Source: Pecten maximus
Taxonomy: Eukaryota
Length of the DNA stretch: 64,000 nt
Direction of reading: 5' to 3'
Assembly: GCF_902652985.1 (NCBI RefSeq)
Contig: NC_047022.1
Span: 42,408,001-42,472,000 of the forward strand
The notes under the pieces were generated by a model, which saw only the letters and a program-made list of their open reading frames with translations, did not search any database and had not been told where the DNA came from. The position numbers were made by a program, and so were the translations under genes. This document shows positions 1 through 46,861 of the stretch, one piece after another (positions within the stretch are counted from its first letter, which is position 1; each line of letters opens with the position of its first letter).

Positions 1-3000
1 GTATACAGTTACAGCTTAGATACATATACAGTCTCTTGTTGACAACCCTGGGTATAATATGAGTATACAGTTACAGCTTAGATACATATACAATGTCTTG
101 TTGACAACCCTGGGTATAATATGAGTATACAGTTACAGCTTAGATACATATACAATGTCTTGTTGACAACCCTGGGTATAATATGAGTGTACAGTTACAG
201 CTTAGATACATATACAGTCTCTTGTTGACAACCCTGGGTATAATATGAGTATACAGTTACAGCTTAGATACATATACAATGTCTTGTTGACAACCCTGGG
301 TATAATATGAGTGTACAGTTACAGCTTAGATACATATACAGTCTGTTGTTGACAACCCTGGGTATAACATGAGTATACAGTTACAGCTTAGATACATATA
401 CAGTCTCTTGTTGACAACCCTGGGTATAATATGAGTGTACAGTTACAGCTTAGATACATATACAGTCTGTTGTTGACAACCCTGGGTATAATATGAGTAT
501 ACAGTTACAGCTTAGATACATATACAGTCTGTTGTTGACAACCCTGGGTATAATATGAGTGTACAGTTACAGCTTAGATACATATACAGTCTGTTGTTGA
601 CAACCCTGGGTATAATATGAGTATACAGTTACAGCTTAGATACATATACAATGTCTTGTTGACAACCCTGGGTATAATATGAGTATACAGTTACAGCTTA
701 GATACATATACAGTCTCTTGTTGACAACCCTGGGTATAATATGAGTGTACAGTTACAGCTTAGATACATATACAGTCTCTTGTTGACAACCCTGGGTATA
801 ATATGAGTATACAGTTACAGCTTAGATACATATACAGTCTGTTGTTGACAACCCTGGGTATAATATGAGTATACAGTTACAGCTTAGATACATATACAGT
901 CTGTTGTTGACAACCCTGGGTATAATATGAGTATACAGTTACAGCTTAGATACATATACAGTGTTTTGTTGACAACCCTGGGTATAATATGAGTATACAG
1001 TTACAGCTTAGATACATATACAGTCTCTTGTTGACAACCCTGGGTATAATATGAGTATACAGTTACAGCTTAGATACATATACAGTCTGTTGTTGACAAC
1101 CCTGGGTATAATATGAGTGTACAGTTACAGCTTAGATACATATACAGTCTGTTGTTGACAACCCTGGGTATAATATGAGTGTACAGTTACAGCTTAGATA
1201 CATATACAGTCTGTTGTTGACAACCCCGAGTATAATATGAGTATACAGTTACAGCTTAGATACATATACAATGTCTTGTTGACAACCCTGGGTATAATAT
1301 GAGTATACAGTTACAGCTTAGATACATATACAGTCTCTTGTTGACAACCCTGGGTATAATATGAGTGTACAGTTACAGCTTAGATACATATACAGTGTCT
1401 TGTTGACAACCCTGGGTATAATATGAGTATACAGTTACAGCTTAGATACATATACAGTCTGTTGTTGACAACCCTGGGTATAATATGAGTATACAGTTAC
1501 AGCTTAGATACATATACAGTCTCTTGTTGACAACCCTGGGTATAATATGAGTGTACAGTTACAGCTTAGATACATATACAATGTCTTGTTGACAACCCTG
1601 GGTATAATATGAGTGTACAGTTACAGCTTAGATACATATACAACGTCTTGTTGACAACCCTGGGTATAATATGAGTATACAGTTACAGCTTAGATACATA
1701 TACAGTCTCTTGTTGACAACCCTGGGTATAATATGAGTATACAGTTACAGCTTAGATACATATACAGTCTCTTGTTGACAACCCTGGGTATAATATGAGT
1801 ATACAGTTACAGCTTAGATACATATACAGTCTCTTGTTGACAACCCTGGGTATAATATGAGTATACAGTTACAGCTTAGATACATATACAGTCTGTTGTT
1901 GACAACCCTGGGTATAATATGAGTATACAGTTACAGCTTAGATACATATACAATGTCTTGTTGACAACCCTGGGTATAATATGAGTATACAGTTACAGCT
2001 TAGATACATATACAGTCTCTTGTTGACAACCCTGGGTATAATATGAGTATACAGTTACAGCTTAGATACATATACAATGTCTTGTTGACAACCCTGGGTA
2101 TAATATGAGTATACAGTTACAGCTTAGATACATATACAGTCTGTTGTTGACAACCCTGGGTATAATATGAGTATACAGTTACAGCTTAGATACATATACA
2201 GTCTGTTGTTGACAACCCTGGGTATAATATGAGTGTACAGTTACAGCTTAGATACATATACAGTCTGTTGTTGACAACCCCGAGTATAATATGAGTATAC
2301 AGTTACAGCTTAGATACATATACAGTCTCTTGTTGACAACCCTGGGTATAATATGAGTATACAGTTACAGCTTAGATACATATACAATGTCTTGTTGACA
2401 ACCCTGGGTATAATATGAGTGTACAGTCACAGCTTAGATACATATACAATGTCTTGTTGACAACCCTGGGTATAATATGAGTATACAGTTACAGCTTAGA
2501 TACATATACAGTCTCTTGTTGACAACCCTGAGTATAATATGAGTATACAGTTACAGCTTAGATACATACACAATGTCTTGTTGACAACCCTGGGTATAAT
2601 ATGAGTGTACAGTCACAGCTTAGATACATATACAATGTCTTGTTGACAACCCTGGGTATAATATGAGTGTACAGTTACAGCTTAGATACATATACAGTCT
2701 CTTGTTGACAACCCTGGGTATAATATGAGTATACAGTTACAGCTTAGATACATATACAGTCTGTTGTTGACAACCCTAGGTATAATATGAGTATACAGTT
2801 ACAGCTTAGATACATATACAGTCTGTTGTTGACAACCCTGGGTATAATATGAGTGTACAGTTACAGCTTAGATACATATACAGTGTCTTGTTGACAATCC
2901 TGGGTATAATATGAGTATACAGTTACAGCTTAGATACATATACAGTCTGTTGTTGACAACCCTGGGTATAATATGAGTATACAGTTACAGCTTAGATACA

Positions 3001-4703
3001 TATACAGCCTCTTGTTGACAACCCTGGGTATAATATGAGTATACAGGTACAGCTTAGATACATATACAGTCTCTTGTTGACAACCCTGGGTATAATATGA
3101 GTATACAGGTACAGCTTAGATACATATACAATGTCTTGTTGACAACCCTGGGTATAATATGAGTATACAGTTACAGCTTAGATACATATACAGTCTCTTG
3201 TTGACAACCCTGGGTATAATATGAGTGTACAGTTACAGCTTAGATACATATACAGTCTCTTGTTGACAACCCTGGGTATAATATGAGTATACAGGTACAG
3301 CTTAGATACATATACAGTGTCTTGTTGACAACCCTGGGTATAATATGAGTGTACAGTTACAGCTTAGATACATATACAGTCTGTTGTTGACAACCCTGGG
3401 TATAATATGAGTATACAGTTACAGCTTAGATACATATACAATGTCTTGTTGACAACCCTGGGTATAATATGAGTATACAGTTACAGCTTAGATACATATA
3501 CAATGTCTTGTTGACAACCCTGGGTATAATATGAGTGTACAGTTACAGCTTAGATACATATACAATGTCTTGTTGACAACCCTGGGTATAATATGAGTAT
3601 ACAGTTACAGCTTAGATACATATACAGTCTCTTGTTGACAACCCTGGGTATAATATGAGTATACAGTTACATCTTAGATACATATACAATGTCTTGTTGA
3701 CAACCCTGGGTATAATATGAGTATACAGGTACAGCTTAGATACATATACAGTGTCTTGTTGACAACCCTGGTTATAATATGAGTATACAGTTACAGCTTA
3801 GATACATATACAATGTCTTGTTGACAACCCTGGTTATAATATGAGTATACAGTTACAGCTTAGATACATATACAATGTCTTGTTGACAACCCTGGGTATA
3901 ATATGAGTATACAGTTACAGCTTAGATACTTATACAATGTCTTGTTGACAACCCTGGGTATAATATGAGTGTACAGTTACAGCTTAGATACATATACAAT
4001 GTCTTGTTGACAACCCTGGGTATAATATGAGTATACAGTTACAGCTTAGATACATATACAATGTCTTGTTGACAACCCTGGGTATAATATGAGTGTACAG
4101 TTACAGCTTAGATACATATACAATGTCTTGTTGACAACCCTGGGTATAATATGAGTATACAGTTACAGCTTAGATACATATACAATGTCTTGTTGACAAC
4201 CCTGGGTATAATATGAGTGTACAGTTACAGCTTAGATACATATACAGTCTCTTGTTGACAACCCTGGGTATAATATGAGTGTACAGTTACAGCTTAGATA
4301 CATATACAGTCTCTTGTTGACAACCCTGGGTATAATATGAGTATACAGGTACAGCTTAGATACATATACAGTCTCTTGTTGACAACCCTGAGTATAATAT
4401 GAGTATACAGGTACAGCTTAGATACATAAACAATGTCTTGTTGACAACCCTGAGTATAATATGAGTATACAGGTACAGCTTAGATACATATACAGTCTGT
4501 TGTTGACAACCCTGGGTATAATATGAGTATACAGGTACAGCTTAGATACATAAACAATGTCTTGTTGACAACCCTGGGTATAATATGAGTATACAGGTAC
4601 AGCTTAGATACATATACAATGTCTTGTTGACAACCCTGGGTATAATATGAGTATACAGTTACAGCTTAGATACATATACAATGTCTTGTTGACAACCCTG
4701 GGT
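1..4703. repeat. 62-bp minisatellite, ~76 copies, in a paxillin intron; continues beyond the left window edge
   Basis: Unit GTATACAGTTACAGCTTAGATACATATACA(GTCTC/ATGTC/GTCTG)TTGTTGACAACCCTGGGTATAATATGA recurs with period 62 and ends ~40 bp before the acceptor at 4744. Confidence 0.98.
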
Positions 4704-4744: not shown

Positions 4745-7700
4745 AAATGTGTGACGGCCATTGGTAAGACCTGGCACCCTGAACACTTTTTCTGTGCCCA
4801 GTGTGGACGACCGTTTGGAGAAGAAGGTTTCCATGAAAAGGACAACAATGCTTATTGCAGGTTTGTGTTATTAAATTTTGTAATATCTGAACAGTTGCCT
4901 CCATCTTTGTATTTAAGTATTACCAAGGTGTTTAAAATGTAAATTATATTTTGTTTATAGTTAAACCTTGTTATAGATCAAGGTACGAGGATATAGAATG
5001 TATGTCATTGTATAAAATATAGTATGTTATGTTACAGACAAGATTACCTGGAGATATATAAATACACTATTCTATGTTACATAGAAGATTACCTAGAGAT
5101 ATATAAATACACTATTCTATGTTACATACGCATGTGGGTTAATGTTGCGTCCCGTTTTGTTGCTCATTAGTGTATTCATGTAAAATATACATTGTTGTAC
5201 ATTGTTGCAACTTGTACATTCCAATGACGTCACATTGTTTACAGATCCCGCGTTGTGTCTGCACTGCCTGACACGAAGGCTTCATTCTGTGTTTTTTAAT
5301 GTTTTTGTTAGTTTTCTGATAATTCAATTGATCAGGTATGATTAAACAACCCCAATCAATATGAGGTGTGATTGTAATTTTAAGTTTAAACCGCATGTTG
5401 CGAAAAATACTTCAACTTTCACTTTGTCAGTGCATTCGTGATCGCAGCTTCGATCGGCTGTCATGGCAACGACGAGGACGGTGGTTTCATCACAGTGACG
5501 AATTTACAAACTTGCATGTGTACAGCCGAAAACTTCTAACTATACCTTATGTCTTTGGAAATCATCTGTAAATAATTAATTGAATTAATTACGATCCATT
5601 GCATTCGTTTATTAACGTTTGTTCGTTTCTATATGCCGATTTCGATACTTAAAACACTGAAGAGTTCCAATATTGGAGAATGAACATTAACACTTGCTCT
5701 ATGAATCGTCCTAGAGCACCCGACTATCCTAAATCAATACTTATGAAACAGGTACGAGCGTGAAGGTAATTGTATGAGAGCAACGAAAAGTGCTGTACAT
5801 TCTTACGAAAATGACAAACATCGTCAAAATTACGTAAAAAGTAGTCAATTAATCGGCATTTCTTCAATTAACACCAGTTTATAACGCCGTTATGTAACCA
5901 TACTTGAATAAATAGAAGAATGTACAGCACTTTTTCTCGGTTTCTTAGCACGATGAATAAGTGTATCATATTTGTTTGTACAACAAAATACGTTGGTCGG
6001 GTGCTCTGGCCATATTTACCGACCAAGTGTTAATGTAGTCCTTCGTGCCGGTCACGTGACCATGCGAGAACACGAGGAACGACGAAAACATCCCGATAAA
6101 GACGTTGGACACCTAACATTAAAATCCGATCAAAAAAACAAACAGAACTAACCGGGAAATCATTAAATATTGAATTTATATTAAAACATGATGTTTTTTG
6201 TTCTTTTTAATTATAAATGCAACATTAACCCACATGCGTACAAGATTACCTAGAGATATATAAATACACTATTCTATGTTACATACAAGATTACATAGAG
6301 ATATATAAATACACTATTCTATGTTACATACAAGATTACCTAGAGATATATTAATACACTATTCTATGTTACATACAAGATTACCTAGAGATATATAAAT
6401 ACACTATTCTATGTTACATACAAGATTACCTAGAGATATATAAATACACTATTCTATGTTACATACAAGATTACCTAGAGATATATAAATACACTATTCT
6501 ATGTTACATACAAGATTACCTAGAGATATTTAAATACACTATTCTATGTTACATACAAGATTACCTAGATATATATAAATACACTATTCTATGTTACAGG
6601 GAAGATTACCTAGATATATATAAATACACTATTCTATGTTACATACAAGATTACCTAGAGATATATAAATACACTATTCTATGTTACATACAAGATTACC
6701 TAGAGATATATAAATACACTATTCTATGTTACATACAAGATTACCTAGAGATATATAAATACACTTTTCTATGTTACAGACAAGATTACCTAGAGATATA
6801 TAAATACACTATTCTATGTTACAGACAAGATTACCTAGAGATATATAAATACACTATTCTATGTTACAGACAAGATTACCTAGAGATATATAAATACACT
6901 ATTCTATGTTACAGACAAGATTACCTAGAGATATATAAATACACTATTCTATGTTACAGACAAGATTACCTAGAGATATATAAATACACTATTCTATGTT
7001 ACAGACAAGATTACCTAGAGATATATGAATACACTATTCTATGTTACAGACAAGATTACCTGGAAATGTTTGCTCCGCGGTGTGGAGGGTGTGGAAACCC
7101 AATCCTTGATAACTACATCTCTGCCCTCAGTCGACACTGGCACCCAGAGTGCTTTGTATGCAGGGTAAGTGATCCTGTTTATAAGGCTGCTGTATTTATA
7201 GTCATGTTGGTACCTGGTTGGGTTTTATTCAAGCATAAAATTTTAGATTATTTTTAAGACATTATTTACTTTCATCAATGTTAATTAAAGGTATAATTAT
7301 AAGATAAAGAGCACTCCGAGACTCCAAAAACTTAAAAGGCAGTCTTTATTATAACATCACTCTGCATAACAGTTTGAAATATATGACTTTTCATAAATTT
7401 TCATGGCAAACAAACCGAGTTGGAATTGTAAAGGGAAGTAACTCTTACCAAAATAAAAGATAATCTTGTATTTTGTAGGAATGTCACATGTCATTTGGAG
7501 GGCGGAGCTTCTTTGACCACGAGGGTCAGCCCTACTGCGAGACCCACTACCACTTAAAGCGTGGCTCGTTGTGTGCCAGCTGTCAGAAGCCCATCACTGG
7601 ACGCTGTATTACGGCCATGTTCAAGAAATTTCACCCAGAGCATTTCGTGTGTGCATTTTGTTTAAAACAGCTCAATAAGGGAACATTCAAGGAGCAGAAC

Positions 7701-15841: not shown

Positions 15842-18800
15842 ATGACGGGTAAGAATTGGTCAGATACACAACAGCTATGTATTTGATCTATTACACAGGT
15901 TGATAATTACTTAAAAGGTCTTAGCGTTATCATGATGGTATATTTTCTCAATCTCTGTTGTCTTCTTCCAGCTGTACACAGTACTAGTACTGTACTGGGT
16001 TCAGTCATATGTACTTATAGTCATAGGTACTTAGCACGTTTTTCCCACCGCGAATATACATATACAGGCCTGATAAACCCAGCCCTTCCCAATCTCGAGT
16101 CCTTTACACCTGTACCACAGGGGCATGTCTAGTCTTATATCAAAAATATGTTTTTGGGGTTAATTGTTCTGCCATCTCGATACATAGATTTTATTCTGAC
16201 AAAAGTAGGAAATTATATTCAATTGACAGTCAACTCTGTAATAACTAATATGTTAGAACTGAAGCATTCGCATTTCGATTTTTCTTTAAAACGATATTTC
16301 TGTGGTTGATTTTTCCAATGTCGTCTAACTTAACTTATATATGTAAGATGTATTTTGTGAGGTGTATTACAATATGTATATATGTGCGGGTATTATGTAA
16401 TGTGTAATATGTGAAGTGTATATATGTGAGAGTATGGAATATGACAACTGTGGTTATAGATTGCAGAGACGTAACAGTGTAATGTTGAAGTGAAATAATG
16501 TAATTCTTTCATTTATATTTCATTATGTTGCTAGTACCAGAGAGTAATGTGAGCAGTCAGTTGATTATCATCCTAGATACTAATCCAGTATGGTGGGGAC
16601 AGGCAGACAAAAGGCAATCTGGCCAAAACCAGGTATAAACACTTCAAATCTACCTCACAGACAACAGGTAATCTGGCCAAAACAAGGTATAAACATGTCA
16701 AATCTACCTCACAGACAACAGGCAATCTGACCAAAACCAGGTATAAACACTTCAAATCTACCTCACAGACAGCAGGTAATCTGGCCAAAACCAGGTAACT
16801 TCCTCACAGACAACAGGCAATCTGACCAAAACCAGGTTTAAACAATTCAAAATTACCTCACAGACAACAGGCAATATGGCCAAAACCAGGTAACTACCTC
16901 ACAGACAACAGGCAATCTGACTGAAACCAGGTGTAAACAATTCAAATCTACCTCACAGACAAGAGGAAATCTGGCCAAAACCAGGTTTAAACACTTCAAA
17001 ATTATATTTACCTCACAGACAACAGGCAATATGGCCAAAACCAGGTATAAACCCTTCAAATCTACCTCACAGACAACAGGCAATCTGGCCAAAACCAGGT
17101 TTAAACACTTCAAATCTACCTCCCAGTCTCTTTCTACATTTTAGCATAAAAGTTGAATTTATTGTTTACTTTGAAAATTATTGCATTATCTATGATCATC
17201 TTCAGCTAGTTGTATAAAGATGAATGTGGTTAGTTTTATGTAGATATAATAGTAAAAAAAAAACAAAAAAACTCAGTGTCCAAATTCCTTGACTTCTTCA
17301 CATTACTGTGATATCAGTTCTATAATCAGTAGAATCAAATAAGGTACTGGCATAGAGTGTTTGACAGCCTTGAGAAGGGACACACAGATTTAAGTTTTAA
17401 GTTACCTTGTACCCAAATAGAAATGTTAGGTATTAGTCCTTCCTTACTAGCTTTATATATATATATATATAGTATGGTCAGTGATTTTTTTTGGCTAGAT
17501 CTACAGCCCACTTTGGGCTGTTTCCCCTTGCCAAAAAAAGGTGTATTTTCCCAATTTTGAAACATCATTTTTCCCAATTTAAAAAAAAAAATAAAAAAAA
17601 TTTGTGTTGAATTTCTATCTGGTTATCTGTATTGTATTTCATTCCTAGAATATCATTTCATGTGAATATTATGGTACGATAGTTGATCATCATACACGTG
17701 AACAGTTGACTGACAAATTTACTTCCGCGATAGGCAAGTTGGCCTTAATTAGTCGTATTAACGGTATAAGGGAGGTAACTCGAATCCTGATCACTGTTGT
17801 GCTTTCCACAAATGACATGCAGGCAATTAAAAAAAAAAATTGCAAGCGTTTCAGAGAGTCCGTAGACAAAACAAGAAGACTTCCTTTGTTTTGTAGTCTA
17901 AGTAATAACCCAGGATGCTTGCTACTGACTCTTCATATCATGAGGCAGACCAGAAAATCCAATAAATGAAGTGTTTTGACTTATTTAAGTATTTTGTCAT
18001 TATGTGCTATTTTCCCAAATTCACCAAACACCGCAATTATTTTCCCAATTGAAAAGGCATAGGCTGTTGAAAAAATTACCTGAAAAAAACACTGATGGTA
18101 CAAATTTCAATACATTTTACAGGTGACTCTGGCACAATGCCTGGAGTGTTTGATGGTATTTGCCAACTCCCACCTGATGATGAGTCACAGGAATAAACTG
18201 GCTGTTATAGCAGCTCACACAGACAGAAGGTTAGTCAACAGTTCCTCAACAGAAATCAACATAAAATACATTCAATCAGAATTCTCACAATGAAAAATAG
18301 AAACGGTCAATCAGAATTCTCACAATGAGAAATAAAGCTTTCAATTATAATTCTCACCATGAGAAATAAAAAAAAGGATTTTGTATTATTTTCAAAAGGA
18401 AAAAAAAATCAATCAAGTGAAGTAAGCCCATTAAAGATGACATATTGTTCTTGATGATGTCAAATCTATAGTACAATAACTATTCTGTTATACAGTAACA
18501 TCTGTATACCCTCACAATCACATTATCATTGTAATAGGATTTGATTTTTTTTCAGTTTATTTCTTTATCCAAAGAAAGATCAAGGTGAAATGGCCAACAC
18601 AAATATTGGTGACGAATCTGCACAGGGTGATGGCAAATATGAGCTGTTTGGATTGGTCAACAACCAGATCAAAGACCAAGCCCGGGAGCTAGTCATCAAT
18701 GGTAAAGTGTCACAACCTGTTTGTTATAAATGGTATAGTGTCACAACCTATTGTTTATAAATGGTATAGTGTCACAACCTGTTGGTTATAAATGGTATAG

Positions 18801-21800
18801 TGTCACAACCTGTTGGTTATAAATGGTACAGTGTCACAACCTGTTGTTTATAAATGGTACAGTGTCACAACCTGTTGTTTATAAATAGTGTAGTGTCACA
18901 ATCTGTTGGTTATAAATGGTATAGTGTCATAACCTGTTGTTTATAAATGGTATAGTGTCATAACCTGTTGTTTATAAATGGTAAAGTGTCACAACCTGTT
19001 GTTTATAAATAGTGTAGTGTCACAATCTGTTGGTTATAAATGGTATCAGTTGATGAAATAGTTTTTAATATAAAGAAAGTAGAATCTACCACTTGCTTAT
19101 GATTTTGTAAAATAATTAGAAAATATCCAGATTTATGGCAGCAATTTTCCTACCTCGAGCTTGTAAAGTTAATTTGAGCTATAACAATGTATACCATTCA
19201 CGATGTTTATTTCCAGGGGGGTCGAGCCTGCTGTACCCAGACACGGTGTTAGCTGGAGCTCTAGCCATGGCATTGTGCTGTATCCTTGTATCAAGTTTTC
19301 AATTACTAATTAAATTCTTATTTTTACTTTGATCTGATATAATTTCATTAATATAGATAAAAATTTAAATGATAACAAATCTGAATAATGATGATTATGG
19401 AATCCTAATAATATCAGCCTTCCTCATATGTTTTTGGAGTAAATATCCGCAGAAAGCTTTACCATAGAAAATATTCTTGTTTTTGGGATGGTCATTATTA
19501 TCCCCTCACGATGAAGTCAGGGAGGGAATATAGTGTCCTGTTTCTATACATGTGTACCTGTGTATGTACATACGTACATTCGATAAATGTCTACCATTGT
19601 CGGCACTGTGATGACTGATGAGCATCTCCCGGCAAAACAAAAAAATTGTACAGTTAGTCAAAAAGTTTTGCTTGATATAAGATTTATTTACATGACAAAA
19701 AAGTTAATCTTTCCAAAAATAGATTGGTTATGGTTTCTACTTGATGATGAATTTATAAGACCAGATGTTGGTAAGTTATGACCTTTCCTGTGGTATTTGT
19801 GACCTTGACAATATCCAGACATACACAGATCTGAGAAGGAGGTTAATCCAGGAGAACAACTTTCCTCGAGAGTTCTGGTAAGTTTTAGACCTTAACACAG
19901 ACTCAGTATAATGGAAGTGAACTAATGTGAAGTTGTTTATATTACACTGGCACGATTGTACAATTTATTATCCTGTTTTTGTGCAGATTATCAAAGGATC
20001 AGAAGACAACCCAGAACAGTATATGAATCTGATGAATGCTGTATTTACAGCTCAGAAACAGGTAACTTATTATTGGTACAGGATACTGTATACAATGTAC
20101 TCCTGTTACCTAGTGGAATGAGAAATCTGATGAATGCTGTATTTACAGCTCAGAAACAGGTAACTTTACCATTGGTACAGGATACTGTATACTCCTGTAA
20201 CCTAGTGTAATAAGAGATCTGATTTTAATAAAATTATATTTACTACTCTCACGGTCTTAATACAAAATACAAGCTTATTTAATTAGAGTTGATAAAGAAT
20301 AAGAAACTTAATTTTTATAAGTTTTATTAGGCATTGTACATGTACTTTGAAAGAAAACATTTTCAAATCCACTCAAGACATTAATATTTTCTCGATTATA
20401 ACTGACATGTTCATATGCTGTAAAGATGTTTTTTTATATTCCAAGAACATTGTGGTCGATGCGTGTGTACTGGATAATGACTCTGGACTTCTACAGCAGG
20501 TTAGTTGTTGTTTAATCACTAAAGGAGGTTGTCATGTCTCACACCCCACAGATCTATTGTAATACGATACAGTATTGATAATTGTTATAGTGTTATATTA
20601 GACATGTTTCTCAATATCTATGTTTTCACTGCAGCAATGAGCATGAGATATATTTTTCACTTTTATAACAGAATATTTTGATATTTTTCACTCGTGTTTC
20701 GCACTCGTGAACTTATCAATATTCTGCCATACTTGTGAAAAATATGTTATATATTCAATGAAAAACCATTCAATATCCTATTGAAATATATATTTCACAG
20801 GCATGTGATATTACTGGAGGCATATATCTCAAGATCCCACAGGTAGCTGGCCTACTTCAATATCTACTGGTAAGTATGATATATCTCAAGATTCCACAGG
20901 TAGCTGGCCTACTTCAATATCTACTGGTAAGTATAATATATTTCAAGATTCCACAGGTAGCTGGCCTACTTCAATATCTACTGGTAAGTATCGTATATCT
21001 CCAGATTCCACAGGTAGCTGGCCTACTTCAATATCTACTGGTAAGTATAATATATCTCAAGATTTCACAGGTAGCTGGCCTACTTCAATATCTACTGGTA
21101 AGTATGATATATCTCTAGATCCCACAGGTAGCTGGCCTACTTCAATATCTACTGGTAAGTATCGTATATCTCCAGATTCCACAGGTAGCTGGCCTACTTC
21201 AATATCTACTGGTAAGTATAATATATCTCAAGATTTCACAGGTAGCTGGCCTACTTCAATATCTACTGGTAAGTATGATATATCTCAAGATTCCACAGGT
21301 AGCTGGCCTACTTCAATATCTACTGGTAAGTATCATATATATCAAGATCCCACAGGTAGCTGGTCTACTTCAATATCTATTGGTAAGTATTATATATCTC
21401 AAGATTCACCAGGTAGCCGGCCTACTTCAATATCTACTGGTAAGTATCATATACTGTAAAAGTGGAAATATTCGCGGTGTGGAAATTTTCGCTTATTTCG
21501 CTATCAGTAAATCTCCGCGAAAATTTTCACACGCGAATATGTTAACACATAAAAATACTAAATATAAAAGATACAAGTGAGTGCAAAAATATCTTGACGG
21601 CGCGAAAATATCCACACTGCGAACACTTTGGAAGCTGGCTAAGCTAAAATTTCCACATGCGAAAATATCCACTTTTACAGTAGCTCAAGATTTCACAGGT
21701 AGCTGGTCTACTTCAATATTACTGGCATGGTTAGCATCAATATCCAGGGTTTACCAACTTATGGTCAAAGATGGAGCAGTCAGTTTGACTGAAATCTGAA

Positions 21801-23858
21801 ATGTCCTGGCTCAGTGACAATGGTACCAGTATTGGATTAATATCTATTGATCTTAAAAACAAACATTTCAATTGTGTTTCATACAAAGGCTATATATTGG
21901 CATGTTACGGTGTACCTCAGATATTTTTGTCTAGATGAATTGGTGTTGTATATAATGAGTTTGAGGCCTGGTCAGTACAGGAGTTACGTAAATGTCTCCC
22001 GTCATCATTTGTGTTTGTATGTTATAAATCTAATTGTAACATACATGTCATGATACAATGTATCTTATATATGTTGTTGTTGAGCCAAAGGTTAAAAGTG
22101 TGATTTCCCTGTCATTATTTTACCTTGTCGGATACATCGATCCTGTACATATTATTGATTGTGTAATGATTACTTACCAGTGGGTGTTCCTGCCGGACCC
22201 AACAGAGCGGCACAAACTCAACCTCCCACCGAAGGCACAAGTTGACTACCGGGCGGCCTGCTTCTGTCATCGTAACCTCATCGATATTGGATATGTTTGT
22301 TCTGTTTGTCTCTCAAGTAAGTATTGATCAGGAATTTGCTCAGTAAGCTTCTTTCTTGTTAACTATTTATTTGTGCCAGTCGTAATGTGTTTCTGATTAT
22401 CACCTTGTAAAGTAAAATGTTTTGAACTTGTAAGATGAAATATTCTTTTAAGTAAAACATTTGTTATATTAAAATGGCTTTAATTCGTTTGATGAACCAG
22501 AATATTGTTTAAATCTCCTAACAGTATGTTTGTGTCTCCTGATAATATTGTACAGTCCATATGAGATCATTAGATTGAAGCTATCAGCAGTAGGATAATT
22601 ATAAAATGAATATAGCATTTTGATTAGGATAAGATAATACATGATTTTATTAATCTGGAGAAAAGATTGACAAGGATGAAGTCAACTAATTCATGTATTG
22701 ACCAAACTCAAGGGCTATACTAGTTTTATGATAAATGAGTGTTTTGATGTTAAATAGTCACTGAATGAATGCAAGAAACAATTGTGCATAAAATGATAAA
22801 AACTGACTTGTGAAGCATTTGTAAATATTTCATCGTATATTTTAAACACTACAATCAAAAGTAAACATATACATTAAAATGCACCATCAAATACACTGGT
22901 TCTCACGATAATTTAATATTCTTTTTAATTCTGACAATTGTATATTGCTTGCCATGTTTCAAAAGCGGGCAAGATATTTCACACTGTTGGACAATATCAA
23001 GGGGATGTAATTCATAATTAATCTATTCCTAGAAGCACCAAGTAAACCATAATTTGTTACCAGCATTTTTTGCACGACCAGTCAATAAGACTTTATTGGG
23101 AATCAAGTGACACTATCTTTGCCCATCAGAGAGTGTGAAATGCATGATTTTGTAATAACTATCAATATTTTATTTTTTACCAATTTGTTTTTGCAGTTCA
23201 TTGTTCATTCAGTCCGATATGTTCCACTTGCCAGTAAGTATATAGCATAATTGTATACAACTGAAAACCAATGAATTATTTAATAAGGAATATATTACAA
23301 TGACCAAATTTATGAAGATATTAAACCCAAAATATTTCTTTTAAAAGTTGTAGTTGCTGCCTATTCTATAGACTTTGATGTCCTTTTACCTTTACTCCAT
23401 TTGACGTTATATATCACAAAGTTCATATCATCTATTCCTTATATTTTTGTATCATTTTAATTCACATTTGATTTTAATGATCTAAAATCATACAATATGA
23501 ATGCTTTTAAAAATGAACATTTTTATCTGATTTTGTTGATGCCACCCACGTTTGAAATACCATGGCCCTAAATGACAACAGCCATCAATAGGCTGTTAAA
23601 CCCAAATCAAACAAACAAGAGTTTTGAATATAATAGCAAATTTATAGGACTATAATGATTTTAAAACATTCTAAACCTAGAACAGTCGAAGGAATTTGTG
23701 CATTATGAAGAAAAACTATGGGGAAGTATTCTTTGAAGAAAGAAAAAATAATGTAGTCTTTTAATTAATTAATTTCATCTTGATTCCACAGCACTACGTT
23801 CAAAATGTTTGGTCCGACAAAAGGACTGAAGAGAAAAAGTAAGAAACAAGCCTCCTGA
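15842..23858 (+). CDS. GTF2H3: General transcription factor IIH subunit 3 (p34/Tfb4); exons 15842-15848, 16535-16632, 18123-18229, 18556-18701, 19217-19279, 19819-19877, 19987-20061, 20446-20499, 20801-20869, 22181-22316, 23197-23233, 23792-23858
   Basis: Spliced product: [13 protein letters not shown]...[19 protein letters not shown]...GDGKYELF...[14 protein letters not shown]...[61 protein letters not shown]...[37 protein letters not shown]. All phases fit. The 7-nt first coding exon (ATGACGG|GTAAGA) is less certain. Confidence 0.96.
16605..17122 (+). repeat. ~54-bp tandem array copying the GTF2H3 exon 2 end and donor
   Basis: Unit CAGACAACAGGCAATCTGGCCAAAACCAG|GTATAAACACTTCAAATCTACCTCA, ~10 copies, some shortened. 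Confidence 0.9.
18698..19046 (+). repeat. 31-bp tandem array (~11 copies) starting at the GTF2H3 exon 4 donor
   Basis: Unit AATG|GTA(A/T)AGTGTCACAACCTGTTG(T/G)TTATA; the first copy overlaps the exon end ATCAATG|GTAAAG. Confidence 0.92.
19280..19818 (+). other. U12-type (minor spliceosome) GT-AG intron in GTF2H3
   Basis: 5' site GTATCCTT; branch motif CCTTGAC at 19803-19809, 9 nt before the exon; no polypyrimidine tract; splits the Tyr codon of ALC-Y-IHR. Confidence 0.88.
20822..21726 (+). repeat. 57-bp tandem array (12 copies) of the GTF2H3 exon 9 3' portion plus donor
   Basis: Unit ATATATCTCAAGATTCCACAGGTAGCTGGCCTACTTCAATATCTACTG|GTAAGTATN; GTAAGT recurs every 57 bp from 20870 to 21440. 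Confidence 0.96.
21454..21680. mobile_element. MITE (227 bp) with TA target duplication
   Basis: TIRs CTGTAAAAGTGGAAATATTCGC / GCGAAAATATCCACTTTTACAG (22 bp, 2 mismatches); TA at 21452-21453 and 21681-21682; interrupts the last 57-bp unit. Confidence 0.9.
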
Positions 23859-24016: not shown

Positions 24017-25467
24017 CCACAGGAGTCAGGATAGTTGCTGATGTTAACTCTTACCATCTGTTGGAATCAATCAAAACTAAACATCGAGGTTGGCAGTCCA
24101 TGAAGAATTTAGAGGTTGAAATCCTGGTTTGAGTTGATGTCATACGAGAACTTATTAGCATGGTATATCTCTAGGGAGTGCTTGGAGATATTTTCTAAGA
24201 TGGTACATTGTGTTCCTTACTTTTTATGTTTAATGTTAAACACTTTTAGTACTGAATTGTTTCCGATATGATAACGGATATGACAACTTATGATGTACTT
24301 TGACAACAGCAATGCAGACTGTCCTAGTATAGATTTTATTGCCATCTTCGACGAGACACTATCGCACATCATCTCCACAGACAACCCAGGACATACATAC
24401 CCAGCTCCGTTACATATAATAGACAAATGCGTTGTAAGCTTATTTTCCTATTTATGGTAAAATATTGTCTGATTTGTTTTCACCTGATCATGTGCATCCT
24501 GCCCTGTCATGCAGGATTATTTAGATGGATTCAAGTTGTTCATCCACATTTGATATCAAAATAATTCAAAATATTTGATTCCAATGACTCCGAAAAATAC
24601 ATTTTTAAAACAAAGTAAAATGTATTTTTTAATTCTAGTTTGTTTGTTTTTTTATTTTTGGTTATTTCTGAACATACAATAACATTGACAAGATAGCAAA
24701 AAAAGAAAAAATAGCATTTTATTGTGATATTTTTTCTTCAACATTGACATTAATTTGCATAGTTGATTTTTGCTCTGGATTTATCTCCCTTTGGATCTCT
24801 TATTTTGGTACTGTCAGTTCTGGCATTATAAATACAATATAATGACATATTTACTGAACATTCCAATTACATAATTAATAAACCTGATTGTATCTAGTAC
24901 ATATATACTGGCACAAAGTTCATCTGGCTAAAATCGCTATTGCATTGGTGATTACGGTTATTATTTCCGGATAAATTATCACTGATTGCTCAAGAAATGG
25001 TAACGAATGATAATACGTTTTGATGTGCCTTATATCTTGTGTATGTAGAGTGTCACTGATTATTGCATGGTAATGAGTTCAATTGAATCTGCATATCTCT
25101 TGAGTCTGGATGTAATCAACATTCATGTTTTCATCAATAGTTTAAAATATCTTTAGAAAAAGTTTCCCAGGTGATAATCATCGTGTATTGCATGCTGAAA
25201 TACAATATGATATATATCCAAGTAAACTCAAAACATTTTCCTGATTAAAACATCATTTTGCTTCAAACTTTTCACAAGACCATTTAAATTTGTAAATAAC
25301 AACCATTACAGAATCCATACTGTAATCCAATGAAAAACAAGTTTTCACAAGTTTTCACAAGTTTTCATTCTTCGCTATCATTCGATTTGGCACACAATGT
25401 CACTTTCGATCTTTTTATCATTATTAACATCTGGTTATAATGGTGACAAAGTAGGAGCAGTACAAAG

Positions 25468-28249
25468 CTACAGTTTGGGTTGTGCTGGTGCTGTTTTCAT
25501 AAAATGTTCTCGCACTTTATACACCACAACATTGGATTCTTCAAAATATGGAGCCAGTTTTGGTTTGACCCGTTCAGCCCAAGCATTCACATTGGGATTG
25601 GATTCAATAAACCTCTCTTCACCACAGGCATAAAGCTGCATTATCTCACATATCCCCAGGAGGTCTGCTATGGAAATGTCATCACCAGCTAGAAATGGTC
25701 GATTGTCCTTCAGGAAATACTGGTCTATTTGGCTGACGGTAATTCCAACACCTTTTCGGAAACCTTCCACCTTTTTCCAGTCAATTGGTTTATTCCTCAA
25801 CCTTGGTAGAATTGCCTGTGATGTAATGAGTAATCACATAAAAAGTCCTGTAATTATGAGTGAACCAGATAACATTAGCCTCGGCTATCAGCTAGATTAG
25901 AGTTACACTGCTTAAGTAATTACATATCATTTGTTTGGCAATAAGCTGATACCTGATAATAAGCCAACATACATATTATGTTCCATGCTATTGCATTGTC
26001 CTGAAATAAGCCCACCAAGTGTCTGACTTTGAATCAAAGTATCAGATATACATACCATTGCCCTACAAGAAGTGTTCGACTTGTAATTTTAGTACGAGAT
26101 ATATACAAGATTGTCCTACACTAGGTGTCTGACTTTTAATCAAAGTACAAGAAATACACACCATTGTCCTACAAGTATCTGACTGATATACACACCATTG
26201 TCCTACAATAAGTGTGACTTTTAATTTTAGTACGATATATACACAAGATTGTCCTACACTAGGTGTCTGACTTTTAATCAAAGTACAAGAAATACACACC
26301 ATTGTCCTACAACAAGTGTCTGACTTTTAATCTATGTTCGAGATATACCATTGTCCTACAATAAGTATCCAACTTTTAATCTTAAGTATGAGATTTACAC
26401 ACCATAGTCCTAAAATAAGTGTCTGACTTTTAATCAAAGTACAAGGTATACACACCATTGTCCTAGAATTAGTGTCTATACACACCATTGTCCTTCAATA
26501 AGCCCCCGAATTTTAATCTATTACTCCAAATTTTCAAACATAACTAAATGATGCACAACTACAGACCAACCTGAACCTACACATGAGATTGGAGCAAGAT
26601 CTGTAGTGATGACAGACCAGGTACAAAGAGTGATTTGAACAGCCCACCATCATCAGAAGGTCGGCTAATAAGATGATGGACCACACACCAAGAAAAAACA
26701 ATTCTGGTACCAATACTCACTAAATTTTGAAACAGCATAGCCATGTTGATTCTGGTGTTTAAATGTTGGTAGTTAATGAACTCGTCCACCCTTGCCTGAG
26801 CCTTGAAGTCAGTCTGCGGATACCAGTGGTCAGGAACATTGTATTTAGCAGCTAAATACTTCAGAATGGCCACACTACCAAGTACATTATATACACAGGA
26901 TTGATGTCCATTTTAACACGTACAATAGCCATAGCTATCATTCTTCAGTTTTAGTATATGTATGATATAGAAGATTTTTATATTTACCTTCCTACTTAAA
27001 CCTTTGTATTTACATCTGTGTAATTCAATGCCAGGGTACCTAACAACAACTACAATAAGGAGATCTCTTAAAAGTTTTGGGCAAGAGTTTCAGAATTGAT
27101 TCAGAAGATATTTAAAGAAAAACTAAATCATAATGAATCAACTTCATATCACTCCCAATCTGAAATCATATGCATTAAAGCTTTAACACTTCAATTATAA
27201 TCGTGTTTCTTTATACTTAGAGGTGACTTTCAAAGGATATGCTGTCAGAATACCTAAATATGTGTATAAAAATGATTTACTTATATTTAATGTCAAATTT
27301 TAGAGTTATAAGTTAGTCTCTCTCCCAATCAAGGGATGTTGACAAGTATAAGTCACATTATACTTGTCTTCTTTTATAATTAAGATACATTTAGAGAATA
27401 TGGATAAGCTAAATTATCTATATTCTATGACTGGTACAAGATCAATACAACTTCAAGAATTACACAACAACAAACATTAATGTGCTGCTGTACATACCTT
27501 TCTGTGAGGACGAAGCCATCATCATCTATGACTGGGACACGGCTGATGGGGTTGATCTTCTTAAATTCCTCACCCATATGTTCTCCTGTTCAATTCAAGG
27601 TTGAAGACGGATCATAACTTTGTAGTTAACACTAATTTTAGTAAAATGTCTTGGTCATGGTCGCCAATCAGAATAAAGGTACAAATTTAAGTATTAGGTA
27701 TGTTCTGTATTATACAGCTATTCATAATTACACAGATGTGTTTTTTTCCAGAAGATGCCGAAAATGTGTGTGAATTTGGATAAAACGACGGGGTCAAATT
27801 AGCAATTCATTGTTCTCTAAGGGAACATCCAACAACCACTGACTTGATATAAATCAATACAAAACCAAAGACTTGTTAGCTTGATTACTTACGAAGTAAT
27901 GATTGCGATGTCTAGTTTAATAACATGGTAGGAGGACGCTCGCAGTGTAATTATTTGAATAAATCACATGTTAGGCGTAATTTCAACAGCAAATAATGAA
28001 ATGAAGATGTCATGACATTTTGGTTGGCCCATACTTCAGAATAGGAGGCGGGGGTCATTATATAGGTCACCATGATAGGTTTGTTTCTTTGCTTTAAAAC
28101 ACAATGACACACAATAATATAGTATTGTTATACCAACCTTTTCTTAGTGCGACCGGTCTGTGTTCAAAAGGGATTTTGTTCAACTTCAGGAAGATGTAGA
28201 CAGCCCTGCAAGGCTGTGACATCAAATCATAGTAGTGTTTCAGCGCCAT
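25468..28249 (-). CDS. GSTT1: Glutathione S-transferase, theta class; exons 28138-28249, 27498-27585, 26721-26874, 25468-25815
   Basis: MALKHYYDLMSQPCRAVYIFLKLNKIPFEHRPVALRKGEHMGEEFKKINPISRVPVIDDDGFVLTESVAILKYLAAKYNVPDHWYP...AQARVDEFINYQH...FLAGDDISIADL. Theta motif SQPCRAV with catalytic Ser; GT-AG phases consistent. The symbol is family-level (GSTT1-like). Confidence 0.93.
26010..26505. repeat. Degenerate ~55-bp tandem repeat in GST intron 3
   Basis: Recurrent AAGTGTCTGACTTTTAATCAAAGTACAAGAAATACACACCATTGTCCTACAA. Confidence 0.8.
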
Positions 28250-32304: not shown

Positions 32305-35300
32305 AAATCCCGCTGTAGTGGTGGATCTCATGGCTCGGCAGGAACTGAATTGGTATTTGGTAACAGACTATTAGAGACCCTGCCGCTTTGGCGTTTCACT
32401 GGGGAGAGTACTTTGCTGGTATCTACTCTCATTCAACAGATCCCTGCTTTGACAATGACTTTAAGTTACCGTCGACTGCCCTGCAGGTAGGGCGTATGAA
32501 TTGTACCTGCTGCCCCCATTGCATGATCGTAAGAGGCGACTAAATTTGGGATCTTATCTTTTCTCTTCTTTCTGAACAACTTTCTTCTTCCTAATGTCTC
32601 CCTTGACAATGCCTCACTTTTGGCCTTTAGTTGAGCGTTCGCCCCTGGGAGGAAGGCTTTGGGCAGTGTCCCCTAGCCGAGACATACCAGAGTCTTTGAA
32701 AAATGGTAGTTGCTGCTCCTTGCTTAGCGCTCAGCATATTAGGAGTGGGACGACTGCATGGTTCGCCCGTTGTCAGTATAATGTGACCGGGTGGGGTGTG
32801 CTGCTGGGTGTCTTCGGCAGTATGCTTCAGTGAGGTAGCACTATAAATCGGCAAAAGTTCCGGCCTATCACAAGGAGACTTAACACGAACATACCGCAGC
32901 CTCCCAAACACACATACGCACTCATCACACGCATGCACGTCGCACGCAAGGGAGGCCGTCCTTAAATGACCTCAGCTGTTAATAGGACGTTAAACAAAAT
33001 AAACCAAACCAAACCAAACCAAATTATCCGTCGAGTCCCAGTTAGATGTATTCTCAAGTGTTGATGCTAAGTCTCGCGAGTGTAGCGAAATAAATTTTAC
33101 GGTAGAGGAAGTCAGACAAGTTTGTAAAACTCTTCCCCGTGGAAAGGCTCCTGGCATAGACTCGTTAGTGTATGAAAATCTTATATATATATATGTGACT
33201 CTTTGTATGTCTGTCTTTGTAACTTATTTAATGCATTTGCAAAATTTGAATATGTTCCCGTTTCTCTCAAGCATGGTTTGATTTGCACGTTATATAAGGG
33301 GCATAATAAACCAAAACGAGATCCTAATAGTTATAGAGCAATCTCACTTTTACCGGTTATATTAAAGGTTTACGAGAAGCTACTTTTAGCAAGATTAGAG
33401 TCTTCCAATCTGTTTCATGTTAATCCTTTACAACATGGATTTCAAAAACAAGTTAGTAGTACAATGACCTCATACATCATGCAAGAAAGTATTGCGTACG
33501 CAGCTGAACATAATAGTAAGTTGTTCACTTGCTTTTTGGATGCGTCAAAAGCCTTTGATTGTGTTTGGCTCGACGGTCTGTTTTTTTAAACTTTACGTTT
33601 AGGTTTCAGTAGAACGTTTGTAAGCGTAATTATGTCTTTATACAAAGATATGTCTAGTGTTGTTATACATCAAAGTTTCATGTCAAATACGTTTAAGATA
33701 TGCCAGGGAACCCGTCAGGGCAGTATTATCTCCCCTTGGCTGTATTCAGTTTATATCAACGATCTGTTGAACGATATTTGTAACTCGCAGTATGCACTAA
33801 CTATTTCTGATGTGAACGTTTCATGTCCTACACAAGCGGATGATATATGTCTTTTATCTCTTTCTAAACGCAACCTAGATATGCTTATAGAGCTTTGTCA
33901 CTTATACAGTTGTAAGTGGAGGTTCAAATATAACGCCTCCAAATCTGTAATTGTTATTTTTAACGAAAAACTTGATACTCGGGCACATTCTTGCCGCAGA
34001 TGGTACTTGGGTATCAATGATATTTTGGAGTCGACAAATGCTAAGCATGTTGGTATTTACTTGAATAAGTTAAAGCCAGGTCGACCTGATGTTGATGAAG
34101 TTATCAACAAATTGCGTGGTCAGTGTTTTGCCCTGTTAAACTGTAATTTATTTGGTCCTAGTATAAATCCTCTTACAGTGGTTCACCTATCTCTCTGGCA
34201 ATTCCTAGAAGCTGTTTTGCGTGTGAGCTGTGGTGCTCGTTGTCCAATTCTGATTGGCGACGCTTGGAAGCAGTTCATCACCTTTGTGCTAAACTCATAC
34301 AGAATTTTCCCCTGAGGACCAGATCAGATATGGCTCTAGGTATGCTAGGCTTGACGTCTCTCCGTTTGTATGAAGATCAAAGTAAGCTTCGGTTTTTGGG
34401 GGCATTGTGTAGAACCAAGGGAAACTTTGCTTCTAAGCAACTGTTTTTGTTGCGACTACATCAAAAACGCCTCGGTGTTTACAAAGCCGATTATGGTTTT
34501 ATTAATGATGCTTGGGATATTCTACAAAAGTATGACATTCAAGAGTTTTTATTTGATTTCCTGTATTCTGGTAAATTTCCTTCTAAGTTCCGGTGGAAAT
34601 ACATTGTTAAATATACTCTGCTGTGTCAGGAATTGCATGCTTGGCAATCTCGGCTTGTTGGTTCCTCGGAGTTTGATAGATTTAGGAAACTTCATCATGA
34701 CTTAGTGCCATCTGTCATCTGGTCATTTCCAAAACATCACCAAAAATTCAATAGCATTTGCAAAACCGTGGGTAAAATGTGGATACTCCCCCCTTTATGT
34801 GAGCTATTGTGTGCTCGGTGCAATGGCACGTAAAAAAAAAAAAAAGATGCAGTCGCCCATTGCCTACTAGACTGTAGGGAGTCTGTCTTATCAAACTTAC
34901 GAGAAAATCTTATGATGGATATGGTTAATAAATATCCTGTTCATGTATAGGTGTCTTTCGATCAGGCTGACAGAGATGTCCAGATATGCACTTTATTGGG
35001 TGCTCCGAGCAAATCAATTTGTGACTTATTTGAAAATGACCCTTCATTATTTGAATTTTTTTTATTAAAGACTGCCTTATTTTTGCAGCAAATGCTTACA
35101 AAATGACATTTCAATAATGTAATATTCAGGGAACAGTTTTGTTGTTTTTACATACTGTAATGTTTAATCCATGACGTAAATGTCATTATCACCTTATATT
35201 GATTCCTTGCACCTATTTGTGGCCATGTTTTTGGCTTTTTCTTCTTTTTTGATTACACTTTATTGTCACTTATTCTTATATTTGTACTCTTCATATTTTG

Positions 35301-35344: not shown

Positions 35345-38300
35345 ACGTATGGATGATATTTTCCATGCACCATACACATCTTTAAGCAATGTCTGAGTTA
35401 TTCCCATCGTAAGATTGTAGCTTAGAAGGCAGGACAGATGAATTTGTACTGGAATTCGGAAGTTTGTTGACCAAACCTCTTCGTGTGACGTCTACAGATA
35501 TGAGTTATCTTACCGACATCACAATATAACTTGGATTTCTAACAAGACTGTCAACATGGCGGTGACAGTCCTGTTGCTGTGTTTTGGTCTTATGGTTTCG
35601 GACAGTTACGGAGGTAACATATCTTCTCTCGTTAGATAATCGACGCTTCAAGTCTATATTTTTATATCATATATATAGAAACTCGTGTGTAGAGGCCGGG
35701 ATAACCAATGTACTTTAACACTAAGTATGTATGTATTATAGGATCCGAAATGAGGGTGGAAAATAATTTCTCGGTTGACAAATTATATTTTCCGGTTTTA
35801 TTTGATGCGAGTCAGATGTGACCCATGGAACATAGCCATGTTTACCCAATTCTGTACACTGAGATCTACTGTAGATTAAAGTACACGTTGATTCATAAAA
35901 CAACATGTTTATCATACAAATAAAATTTAAAACATTACCATATTTTAACAAAAATAAAACACAAGTAAGATGTAAATAACATCAGTAACTGAGGGACACG
36001 AAAACAACATGTAAATCATTGTTTCCAAGGTGTTCCTAAATCTTTTTTTTATGTCGCCTCCACGAAGGTATGAAGTTGATAGACATTGTTTGCTGTGTTC
36101 GTGCTATTGGTAATTTATTGGTTTATAACAAGGGTGAGAAAGCACTTCACTCATCATCACAACAACACAATCATCCGTTATGCTTTCAACAAGCATGTTC
36201 TAAATGTCAATAATACATTATGAAAATTTACATAAATTATACCAGTAAATGTACAGGTTTTACGTAACTCTTATTAGCCTCAAATATATATCGGATAAGT
36301 TTGCGAAGATCACTGATATCATCAACACTTAGTAAGCTAAAAAGTTTATACATTGAAAATTTCGCAAGTTATATGGTTTTATGTATTTGAATATGATATG
36401 ATAATTCCTGTCATCTAAACGTAAAATGATATGCGTCTTCTTCATTCATTTGCATGTTTGATCGCTATCTAAGTGTGTCAGGGTTAGACCAATGACACGG
36501 TGAGGAATTACAGGACCGTCTGTTCGGTTACACGACACAAATATATGACCTTCACAGGCATTCTTAGCTGCTTCAGTCACGCTAATAAATATTAAATTAG
36601 ATAAATATACACACGTTTTTACATACCCTATATAATTTTAGCCAACCAATTATGACTCTAATCACCTGTCTTAAAATTTACATGTTTAAGAGTTGCTATT
36701 GACGATTTATAGAAGATTATTTGTGAAGTTTACAATGGCACATTTTAAGACTCACCGTTTGATCACCAAATATTCCCCACCCATCATCATTGAATCCCTC
36801 AAGAATGTATACTTTCCATTGAATTTATATCCCTTAAGAATGTTACTTCCATTAAATTCGTATCCCTTAAGAATGTATGGTTCCATCATATATCCCTTAT
36901 AGTCCCAGATGTTTTATGAAATGGAAAAAAAAGCAATAATAGTTATGAAGTTGGGACGCCATGATCATTTAATAAATTGTTGTTGAATTTCCTTTTGTGT
37001 ATGTTTTAGATTCTGGCCATTCTGGTTGTGGCGGACCTGCCCAACTAACACATAACCACGGACATTTCTCGTCGACCAGAAACGCGTCAGTGACATTGTA
37101 CGAAAATGATATCCAGTGTCATTGGAGGATCCACTCTACATCCGGAAAAATTATCCGGCTCCGGGCTCTGTCTTTTGATTTAGAAGATGATAACGAGTAC
37201 GTTGTTTCTCTTCTGTCCATTCATTAAGGGAATGCGACTTTTAATCTGTAAACGAAACAGACCATTTTGATTATAAATATCTCTGACAACAGTTTCTATT
37301 CTTTTACATTTCATTAGAATAACACCATTGAATTTGACTTTGTTCATTATTCATTAAACACAATGCTATTGCTTAGTGATATGTAGAACATGTTGTAATT
37401 GCCTACATTGGACTGTGTTTTTAAATTTGCATTCACTACGATTGTATTTACATAAATGTTATTTCAGCATTCCCTTTATATATGTACGAGTGATTGTCTT
37501 GGAAAGTTTACCAGGGATGTAATCAAAAGCTAAGGTTATATTGATCAACATATTTTGACTGTGTTAACCGTAATTCACTGTATAATAATATATTGGTAGA
37601 TATCATAATTTTGTTAATTAGAGCACTCGACGTTTATAGATAGCTAAAACAGATGATACCTTTCTCCTCGGACTGATACATGTATCTCGTGGATGTTTTT
37701 AAATGATTTCGTCGTCTCTTCCTTTGGTGCATATCTTCATATAATTCTATAAAACAGATAGAACAATATAATTGTTGTCTCCCCCAGGTGCGACAATGAT
37801 TACTTAGCCGTATACGACGGGAAGAACACACGATCCAATCTCATTGGGAAGTTCTGTGGTAACGCCAGCGTGGAGCTCATATCATCCCACCGATACCTGT
37901 CCCTGTTTTTTGTAACCAACAGTCACAGACAATCTACAGGATTCAAATTCACCTACGACTTCGTACAAGCGTCAAGTAAGATTTAACTAAGAAAGCCAAT
38001 CCTGATGACATACATATTATTCAATTAATTCATAAAAAATCAGACTATTTCTGAATGATTTTCTCATCTACAATGTACTTTAAAATATAGTTTATTTAAA
38101 AAACAGGACATAATTATTGACACGTAAGGAGAATTGTGATTCTAACTCAAAGTCAATCACAAGGATAAACAAACCAATTGTTTTATAGATAACACCTTAT
38201 ATATATATCTAATTCAATGAAGCTAGCTGTAATACAGCCTGAATATTGTCTGAACCCTACAAATTAATAATAATGGTTTGATGTGTTCATCTTCACGTAG

Positions 38301-46800: not shown

Positions 46801-46861
46801 TATTAACAAAGATCACCTGTATGTCATTATAAATAGTATTAAGGTTCGAATGATCAGTTCT

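Follow-up and report, generated by a model that had tools for sequence, protein, structure and literature searches.

The end of exon 9 of GTF2H3 (TFIIH p34) in the scallop Pecten maximus and the beginning of intron 9 together form the first unit of a 57-bp minisatellite, and the RNA contigs leave the exon at the first of the repeated donors. This array is a real, clean and ordinary example of an already known kind of repeat, and its later donors and 27-nt exon-derived pieces are most likely silent passengers. Coordinates refer throughout to the window, which is the whole stretch of 64,000 nucleotides analysed (contig NC_047022.1, positions 42,408,001 to 42,472,000), and the features discussed are listed in Table 1.

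Table 1. Features of GTF2H3 and of the junction-spanning repeats in the window
Feature	Position	Strand	Description
GTF2H3 exon 9	20801..20869	+	69 nt, phase 0 at both ends; contigs enter from exon 8 and exit at 20869
57-bp array	20821..21447	+	11 head-to-tail units, each of 49 exon-derived and 8 intron-derived nt
Exon-internal CAG/GTAGCT proto-splice site	20840..20848	+	repeated in every copy as a possible acceptor; weak predicted donor
27-nt phase-0 segment VAGLLQYLL	20843..20869	+	same in copies 1-9; copies 10 and 11 differ synonymously only
Genuine 5' splice site (donor 1)	20870..20875	+	ten further donors at +57n to 21440
In-frame TAG, copy 6	21116..21118	+	included if donors 6-11 are used
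MITE-like element	21452..21682	.	231 bp, terminal inverted repeats of ~44 nt, each end with TA; interrupts copy 12 close to its start
Remainder of degenerate copy 12	21683..21725	+	1-nt deletion in the cassette, donor GT lost
GTF2H3 exon 10	22181..22316	+	every contig exiting exon 9 has the first letters of this exon as its loose end
Exon 2 donor array	16604..17126	+	54-bp base unit, 29 exon nt
Exon 4 donor array	18698..19046	+	31 bp x 11, 4 exon nt; contigs use the first donor and have their loose end at 19219
Exon 7 end and donor duplication	20026..20215	+	two copies, 98 bp; donors 20062 and 20160; contigs use the first
Paxillin-like LIM gene, acceptor-side array	6239-7061		45 bp x 18, ending 12 nt inside the exon
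CUB-protease gene, two-copy donor	42489-42603		

The GTF2H3 gene

The gene model comprises 12 exons on the forward strand (15842-23858), and the first-pass annotation was right in assigning the array to exon 9. Over the final 301 residues, the product of this model does not differ from the named P. maximus GTF2H3 isoform X1. Isoform X1 matched human GTF2H3 in PDB with an E value of 1.3e-108 (residues 8-300), and this full-length match to p34, with its vWA-like domain and C-terminal cysteine-rich domain, places the protein in the GTF2H3/Tfb4/TFIIH p34 family. The translation of exon 9 alone matched Pfam Tfb4 with an E value of 9.2e-6 and 25.9 bits, below the cut-off of 27 bits that is set for the whole protein. 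The shortest intron of the gene measures 109 nt.

Two AGs, 6 nt apart, are present at the exon 2 acceptor (16533-16540); the isoform X1 record takes the second (303 aa) and the window model the first (305 aa). Intron 5 (19280-19818), which starts with GTATCCTT and carries CCTTGAC at 7-13 nt ahead of its AG, resembles a minor-spliceosome (U12-type) intron. Its donor scored -3.7 on the major-donor matrix, and the intron is spliced exactly by the RNA contigs. Intron 8 contains, at 20640-20760, a short dispersed repeat attracting many contigs of other loci, with a summed depth of up to 414.

Anatomy of the array

The array was assigned a period of 57, 11.1 copies, 93% matches and a score of 1098 by TRF, which is far above chance. 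As had been read from the sequence, it holds 11 GTAAGT donors at 20870+57n (20870-21440), every spacing being of 57 nt. Copy 1 is the genuine exon end, its unit (20821-20877) consisting of the last 49 nt of exon 9 and the first 8 nt of the intron. The other copies differ from it by 2-5 letters, and the pairs 4 and 7, 5 and 8, and 2 and 9 are identical. The exonic CAG/GT (20840-20844) was duplicated with the rest of the unit and is present in all 12 copies; the CAG/GTAG sites accordingly number 12, at 20843+57n plus 21699. The 27-nt phase-0 segment encoding VAGLLQYLL was found in the units as the first-pass annotation described it, identical in copies 1-9. The acceptor-like YYCACAG said to precede it is present in 9 of the 11 copies, but copy 11 has TCACCAG; in copy 10, the donor is preceded by TTG. 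Reading through the array keeps the frame and adds units of 19 aa, as claimed, and the TAG at 21116 is the only in-frame stop in 230 codons.

The repeat region as first annotated, to 21726, contains a 231-bp MITE lying inside a degenerate 12th copy. This MITE-like element matches its own inverse at 89%, and at least 39 other full-length matches, at 96-97%, were found among the 40 candidates scored of 562. The 57-bp unit is confined to this single locus in the genome assembly (9 of 9 matches), which represents one haplotype.

Predicted strength of the repeated splice sites

Scoring matrices were trained on the 28 donors and 29 acceptors of the window. Donor 1 scored 11.0, donors 2-9 and 11 are identical to it and the copy 10 donor scored 8.2; the splice signal is therefore reiterated in the intron by 10 further GTAAGT, 9 of them with the matrix score of donor 1. 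The internal CAG/GTAGCT scored 5.4 as a donor, that is, 5.6 bits under the genuine donor 27 nt away. As acceptors, the internal AGs scored 3.9-8.0 (3.9 in copy 1 and 4.5-8.0 in the later copies), as compared with -0.3 to 12.2 (median 7.4) for true sites scored by leave-one-out; among 110 AGs taken from introns, the 90th percentile was 4.0. By these scores, the repeated sites look usable in this AT-rich genome. The distance from donor 1 is 30 nt to the AG of copy 2 and 87 nt to that of copy 3, and from the internal GT it is 57 and 114 nt, respectively. An intron of 30 nt, from donor 1 to the AG of copy 2, is too short for splicing. The succession of AG, 27 nt and GTAAGT, described in the first-pass annotation, is real and plausible by matrix score, but the RNA contigs give only the junction from 20869 to exon 10.

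RNA and protein evidence

The RNA evidence consists of contigs assembled over 19100-20900 from four runs of four studies (X3, X4, X5 and X9) among the 22 listed; X9 is recorded as RNA, whereas X3, X4 and X5 were taken as RNA by guess. Assembled contigs drop rare forms and thus show presence, not absence. Exons 5-9 were spliced as modelled and 20869 was joined to exon 10 in all four runs, so the first donor gives the main mRNA. In none of the four did a contig cover the intronic positions 20870-20900, the depth in 20869-20900 being the share of 20869 alone. The first-pass annotation had proposed isoforms longer by 27 nt or by multiples of 57 nt. Neither was recovered: the go-back joint from 20869 to 20843 expected of the former was found in no contig of the four runs, and, within the region ending at 20900, no contig ran past 20869 into the intron.

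Among the 129 homologues compared, which include 10 members of the scallop cluster, none has an insertion across the exon 9 stretch, 128 being of the same length and one shorter by one residue. The peptide VAGLLQYLL is repeated in none of the 129, an absence of cassette inclusion that weighs little for rare forms, and both named P. maximus GTF2H3 isoforms carry the peptide once. The stretch aligns gap-free to human p34 and is nearly invariant (Y21 in 129 of 129), and the Q-V pair permitting CAG/GT is common to other scallop proteins.

Splicing from CAG/GT in copy 1 to CAG/ in any of copies 2-9 would leave the protein unchanged, as the first-pass annotation stated for a later copy: the 27-nt piece is identical in copies 1-9 and the mRNA would be letter-for-letter the same. 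Splicing into copies 2-9 would therefore be invisible in the mRNA, the RNA contigs say nothing on it, and the finding of copy-1 alleles in all reads would carry no weight against it. Of the single-letter differences suggested for telling the copies apart, ATCCCA/ATTCCA is situated before the AG and would be lost with the intron on the intron-gain route. Copies 10-12 are the only ones marked, and no contig in the four runs matched their variants.

A one-letter variant in exon 9

In each of runs X3 and X4, two 60-nt contigs bridge exons 9 and 10; one matches the window exactly and the other departs from it at one letter. The depth of the variant contig was 13.3 in X3, against 48.1 for the exact one (21.7%), and 23.6 in X4, against 80 (22.8%). 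The variant letter is probably at 20851, given that the upstream contig stops at 20850, if the graph used 31-letter words. Position 20851 is the third letter of a glycine codon, fourfold-degenerate, and copies 10 and 12 differ from copy 1 there. With its one change and no gap, the variant contig fits no reference copy: for copy 10 two changes would be needed, the difference of copy 11 is at 20848, and copy 12 carries a deletion. A synonymous allele in pooled animals is therefore the simplest and most likely reading; a downstream copy of another haplotype could conceivably be the source. A paralogue or processed copy was also sought as the origin of the variant, and none is present in the genome assembly.

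Uneven variation among the copies

Variation is unevenly distributed along the unit. The first 22 positions include 8 polymorphic ones, mostly amino-acid-changing, and the 35 positions of the cassette and donor include 3, all synonymous and only in copies 10 and 11. The one-sided Fisher probability of this skew is 0.013, or 0.048 without two seam positions, for a test that is post hoc and rests on 11 positions, with positions 1-22 forming an AT-rich, slippage-prone tract that has several letters per position. Within copies 2-9, the corresponding counts are 0 of 35 and 6 of 22 (p 0.002). That all three cassette changes are synonymous has a probability of 0.03-0.09, or 0.08 against the background of the other junction arrays, in which 13 of the 30 exon-derived changes are synonymous (a count that excludes 2 changes of the paxillin array). 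A skew of this size is reached in the best window of 3 of the 22 control arrays and in 1.9% of random windows. We regard the skew as no more than a hint.

Origin and behaviour of the array

The evidence is best explained by a minisatellite whose first unit lies over the exon 9/intron 9 boundary, with the first donor used and the later donors and 27-nt pieces very probably carried along without effect. A local tandem duplication would have captured the exon end together with its donor, and the array may then have grown by unequal exchange or slippage; this model is suggested because the identical pairs 4 and 7, and 5 and 8, are three units apart, the far-end copies are the most diverged, and the last contains the MITE. 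The most upstream donor presumably wins by 5'-to-3' selection, as in human F7, the RNA contigs being what suggests the extension to the scallop, and the strong first donor is likely to outcompete the internal CAG/GT. The gene would tolerate the array through this choice of the most upstream donor. The duplications at exons 4 and 7 likewise use the first donor in the contigs. Leakage to donors 6-11 would bring in the TAG, and such transcripts would presumably be degraded by nonsense-mediated decay. An array of this type offers a natural experiment on which of several identical donors the spliceosome picks, and it can mislead gene annotation.

Alternative readings of the array

It may instead be that some transcripts are spliced silently, from the GT at 20843 into one of the later copies at its AG, taking that copy's 27-nt piece and donor and giving the same protein, which we consider unlikely. 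The geometry would be an intron of 57 nt to copy 2 and of 114 nt or more from copy 3 onward, with the cassette and donor kept under selection. In its full form, which seems to us equally improbable, the array is a live silent intron gain in which about one-fifth of the GTF2H3 transcripts split exon 9 at CAG/GT and finish with a downstream 27-nt piece. Several observations are consistent with silent splicing: the sites score in the usable range, the later AGs above that of copy 1; the substitutions are skewed and those in the cassette only synonymous, with few control arrays or random windows showing as much; the one-letter variant occurs at equal share in two studies, probably at a position where copies 10 and 12 differ; and the model is in print for mirages (PMC3087553) and for AGGT duplications (PMC3443670). 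However, the variant contig fits no reference copy, and an ordinary allele is expected at a fourfold-degenerate site; the internal donor is much weaker than the genuine one; selection would be weak if shared among ten redundant copies; the skew is post hoc and from few positions, the variable part is a slippage-prone tract, and synonymous changes are frequent in other junction arrays; and exon 9 would have to be split into exons of 42 and 27 nt. Silent splicing, if it did occur, would show an intron being born in an essential gene, which reviews count among the rarely observed steps. A live gain would explain why the cassette and donor resist change and why the acceptor side drifts toward better 3' splice sites, and many such intermediates would then exist in this scallop genome, where a few percent of junctions carry arrays, allowing a population-level test of intron birth.

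The later donors may also be used directly, donors 2-5 adding 19 to 76 residues in frame and donors 6-11 giving poison ends, at a level of several percent or with a function. Donors 2-9 and 11 equal donor 1, the frame is open to 21115, and precedents are described for human CBS and 6-16 (PMC1557585); the contigs of all four runs nevertheless stop at 20869, and no such protein was found among the 129 homologues, in which the stretch is nearly invariant and gap-free against human p34. We thus doubt leakage on this scale, whereas low-level noise is compatible with the minisatellite explanation. Still less probable is the use of the downstream pieces as cassette micro-exons, with donor 1 spliced across at least 87 nt to the AG of copy 3 or of one further on, which would add one or more extra VAGLLQYLL. 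The necessary AG, 27 nt and GTAAGT, in phase 0, are present in 10 downstream copies, but the expected joint back from 20869 to 20843 is absent from the contigs of the four runs and the peptide is repeated in none of the 129 homologues. An assembly artefact, inflating or inventing the array, can be practically dismissed: structured variants shared between copies and a MITE insertion are not made by collapse or stutter errors, and similar arrays recur genome-wide.

Relation to known systems

Boundary-spanning repeats of this kind have been described before. In Borensztajn et al. 2006 (PMC1557585), mutagenesis of the 37-bp VNTR of human F7 IVS7 showed that only the most upstream of identical donors is used, and CBS IVS13, 6-16, LAMIN B2 and PDGF are named beside F7; in human CBS and 6-16, according to the same paper, the next two donors are used too, so a low leak at GTF2H3 would be no surprise. 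The GTF2H3 array resembles F7 IVS7 in having its first monomer across the exon-intron boundary and an identical repeated donor of which the most upstream is used. However, the F7 units hold 4 exon nt, whereas the GTF2H3 unit is exonic in 49 of 57 positions, is a multiple of three and has an internal AG/GT.

The amphioxus repeats known as mirages, reported in the globin genes BflGb6 and BflGb9 and in Adh3, TnC and PGBD5, leave splicing undisturbed (PMC3087553, PMC3902484). Like them, the scallop array is a minisatellite-like duplication of a boundary in a marine invertebrate, with diverged end copies and regular splicing kept; amphioxus mirages lie on the donor or the acceptor side, as do the scallop arrays, the host here being a scallop. 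GTF2H3 belongs with the mirages and F7, as its array is head-to-tail, the end unit spans a real exon-intron boundary and the junction at 20869/20870 is confirmed by RNA contigs. A literature search retrieved no report of mirages in molluscs, judged from listings and with most subscription journals outside the search.

Intron gain from a mirage is not a new idea but an already published model, drawn with a central unit becoming an exon and the units between becoming a new intron (PMC3087553, section 16, Fig. 7 legend). Duplication of AGGT is likewise an accepted route to intron gain (PMC3443670, PMC4974935). The first-pass annotation cited tandem duplication of AG/GT as such a route; at GTF2H3, no new intron was seen. 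As in AGGT-duplication intron gain, the first copy could supply the donor and the next copy the acceptor with the coding sequence unchanged. In the AGGT cases, the duplication lies inside an exon or a new intron has been shown, with splicing forced or proven, whereas in GTF2H3 the original donor was copied too and gives the correct mRNA. With the old donor copied and working, nothing forces a new intron at GTF2H3. The array is nevertheless a better than usual substrate for the mirage intron-gain model, with a unit that is a multiple of three, an in-frame AG/GT and a skew of variation that makes the prediction concrete.

Junction-spanning arrays elsewhere

A duplicated exon end opens 4 of the 11 introns of GTF2H3. 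The exon 7 duplication, with its two copies, was missed by the array-counting script. With a score of 5.7, the donor of exon 2 is weak, and variant copies in the array there have CAG/GTAAC or CAG/GTAAT, seemingly stronger sites; the named short GTF2H3 isoform begins at a methionine in exon 3. Across the window, junction arrays were counted at 4 of 29 donors and 1 of 30 acceptors, numbers that provide no enrichment test, as the window was chosen for one of the arrays.

Among exons chosen blind through Pfam hits, those of kinases had arrays at 8 of 144 junctions (1.8% in the control, p 0.005) and those of myosins and kinesins at 2 of 95 (2.1% in the control, p 0.61). The pooled rate was 10 of 239, or 4.2% (95% CI 2.0-7.6), against 1.9% (p 0.017), with a first-copy control that was chosen after the result of a looser control was known. 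The looser control, which counts segments inside arrays, gave 9.3%, above the observed rate. A genome-wide enrichment of arrays at junctions was rejected, the kinase signal having failed to replicate in the myosin and kinesin set. These counts leave out 56 of 136 matches to kinases, which were long domains encoded by one exon, unplaced duplicates and, in some cases, neighbours within the same gene. Of the myosin and kinesin matches, 52 of 82 and 104 of 134, respectively, are not included, nor are 7 of the 60 loci retrieved, 3 being duplicates located on unplaced contigs and 4 multi-exon matches. Boundaries were set by matrix, not by RNA, and junctions without a good splice site (16 of 160 and 11 of 106) were dropped. 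Minisatellites cover 15% of the non-exon control positions in the kinase set. Junction-spanning arrays are thus common in this genome, largely because minisatellites are dense, and at most mildly enriched.

Of 97 exon ends, 11 contain an AGGT within their last 49 nt, and in 4 of the 97 it lies at a multiple of three from the donor. Some arrays should therefore get the cassette layout by chance, as an expected by-product.

Outside the window, ten junction-spanning arrays were seen in kinase and kinesin genes, five donor-side and five acceptor-side, with 1.6 to 30 copies. A piece of the 45-bp unit of the paxillin-like array is present at 5028-5129, 1.1 kb upstream across an insertion. The 62-bp array at 1-4703 begins 500 nt before the window and has about 84 copies. 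Minisatellites are extremely dense in the 40 kb upstream of the window, and a 96-bp x 8 unit there apparently holds a paxillin exon end and donor.

Tandem CUB-LDLa-trypsin genes occupy 30553-64000 of the window, at 35558-50525 and from 53909. The two-copy donor of the first (42489-42603) is absent from the matching exon (61210-61270) of its tandem paralogue; this donor was therefore duplicated after the genes were, or one of the two genes has since lost the duplication. A third CUB-LDLa-trypsin start, at 30553, is apparently truncated and is followed, by eye, by a LINE-like reverse-transcriptase remnant at about 33000-35300. A glutathione S-transferase theta-like gene, also recognised by eye, lies on the reverse strand at 25400-28200, tail to tail with GTF2H3.
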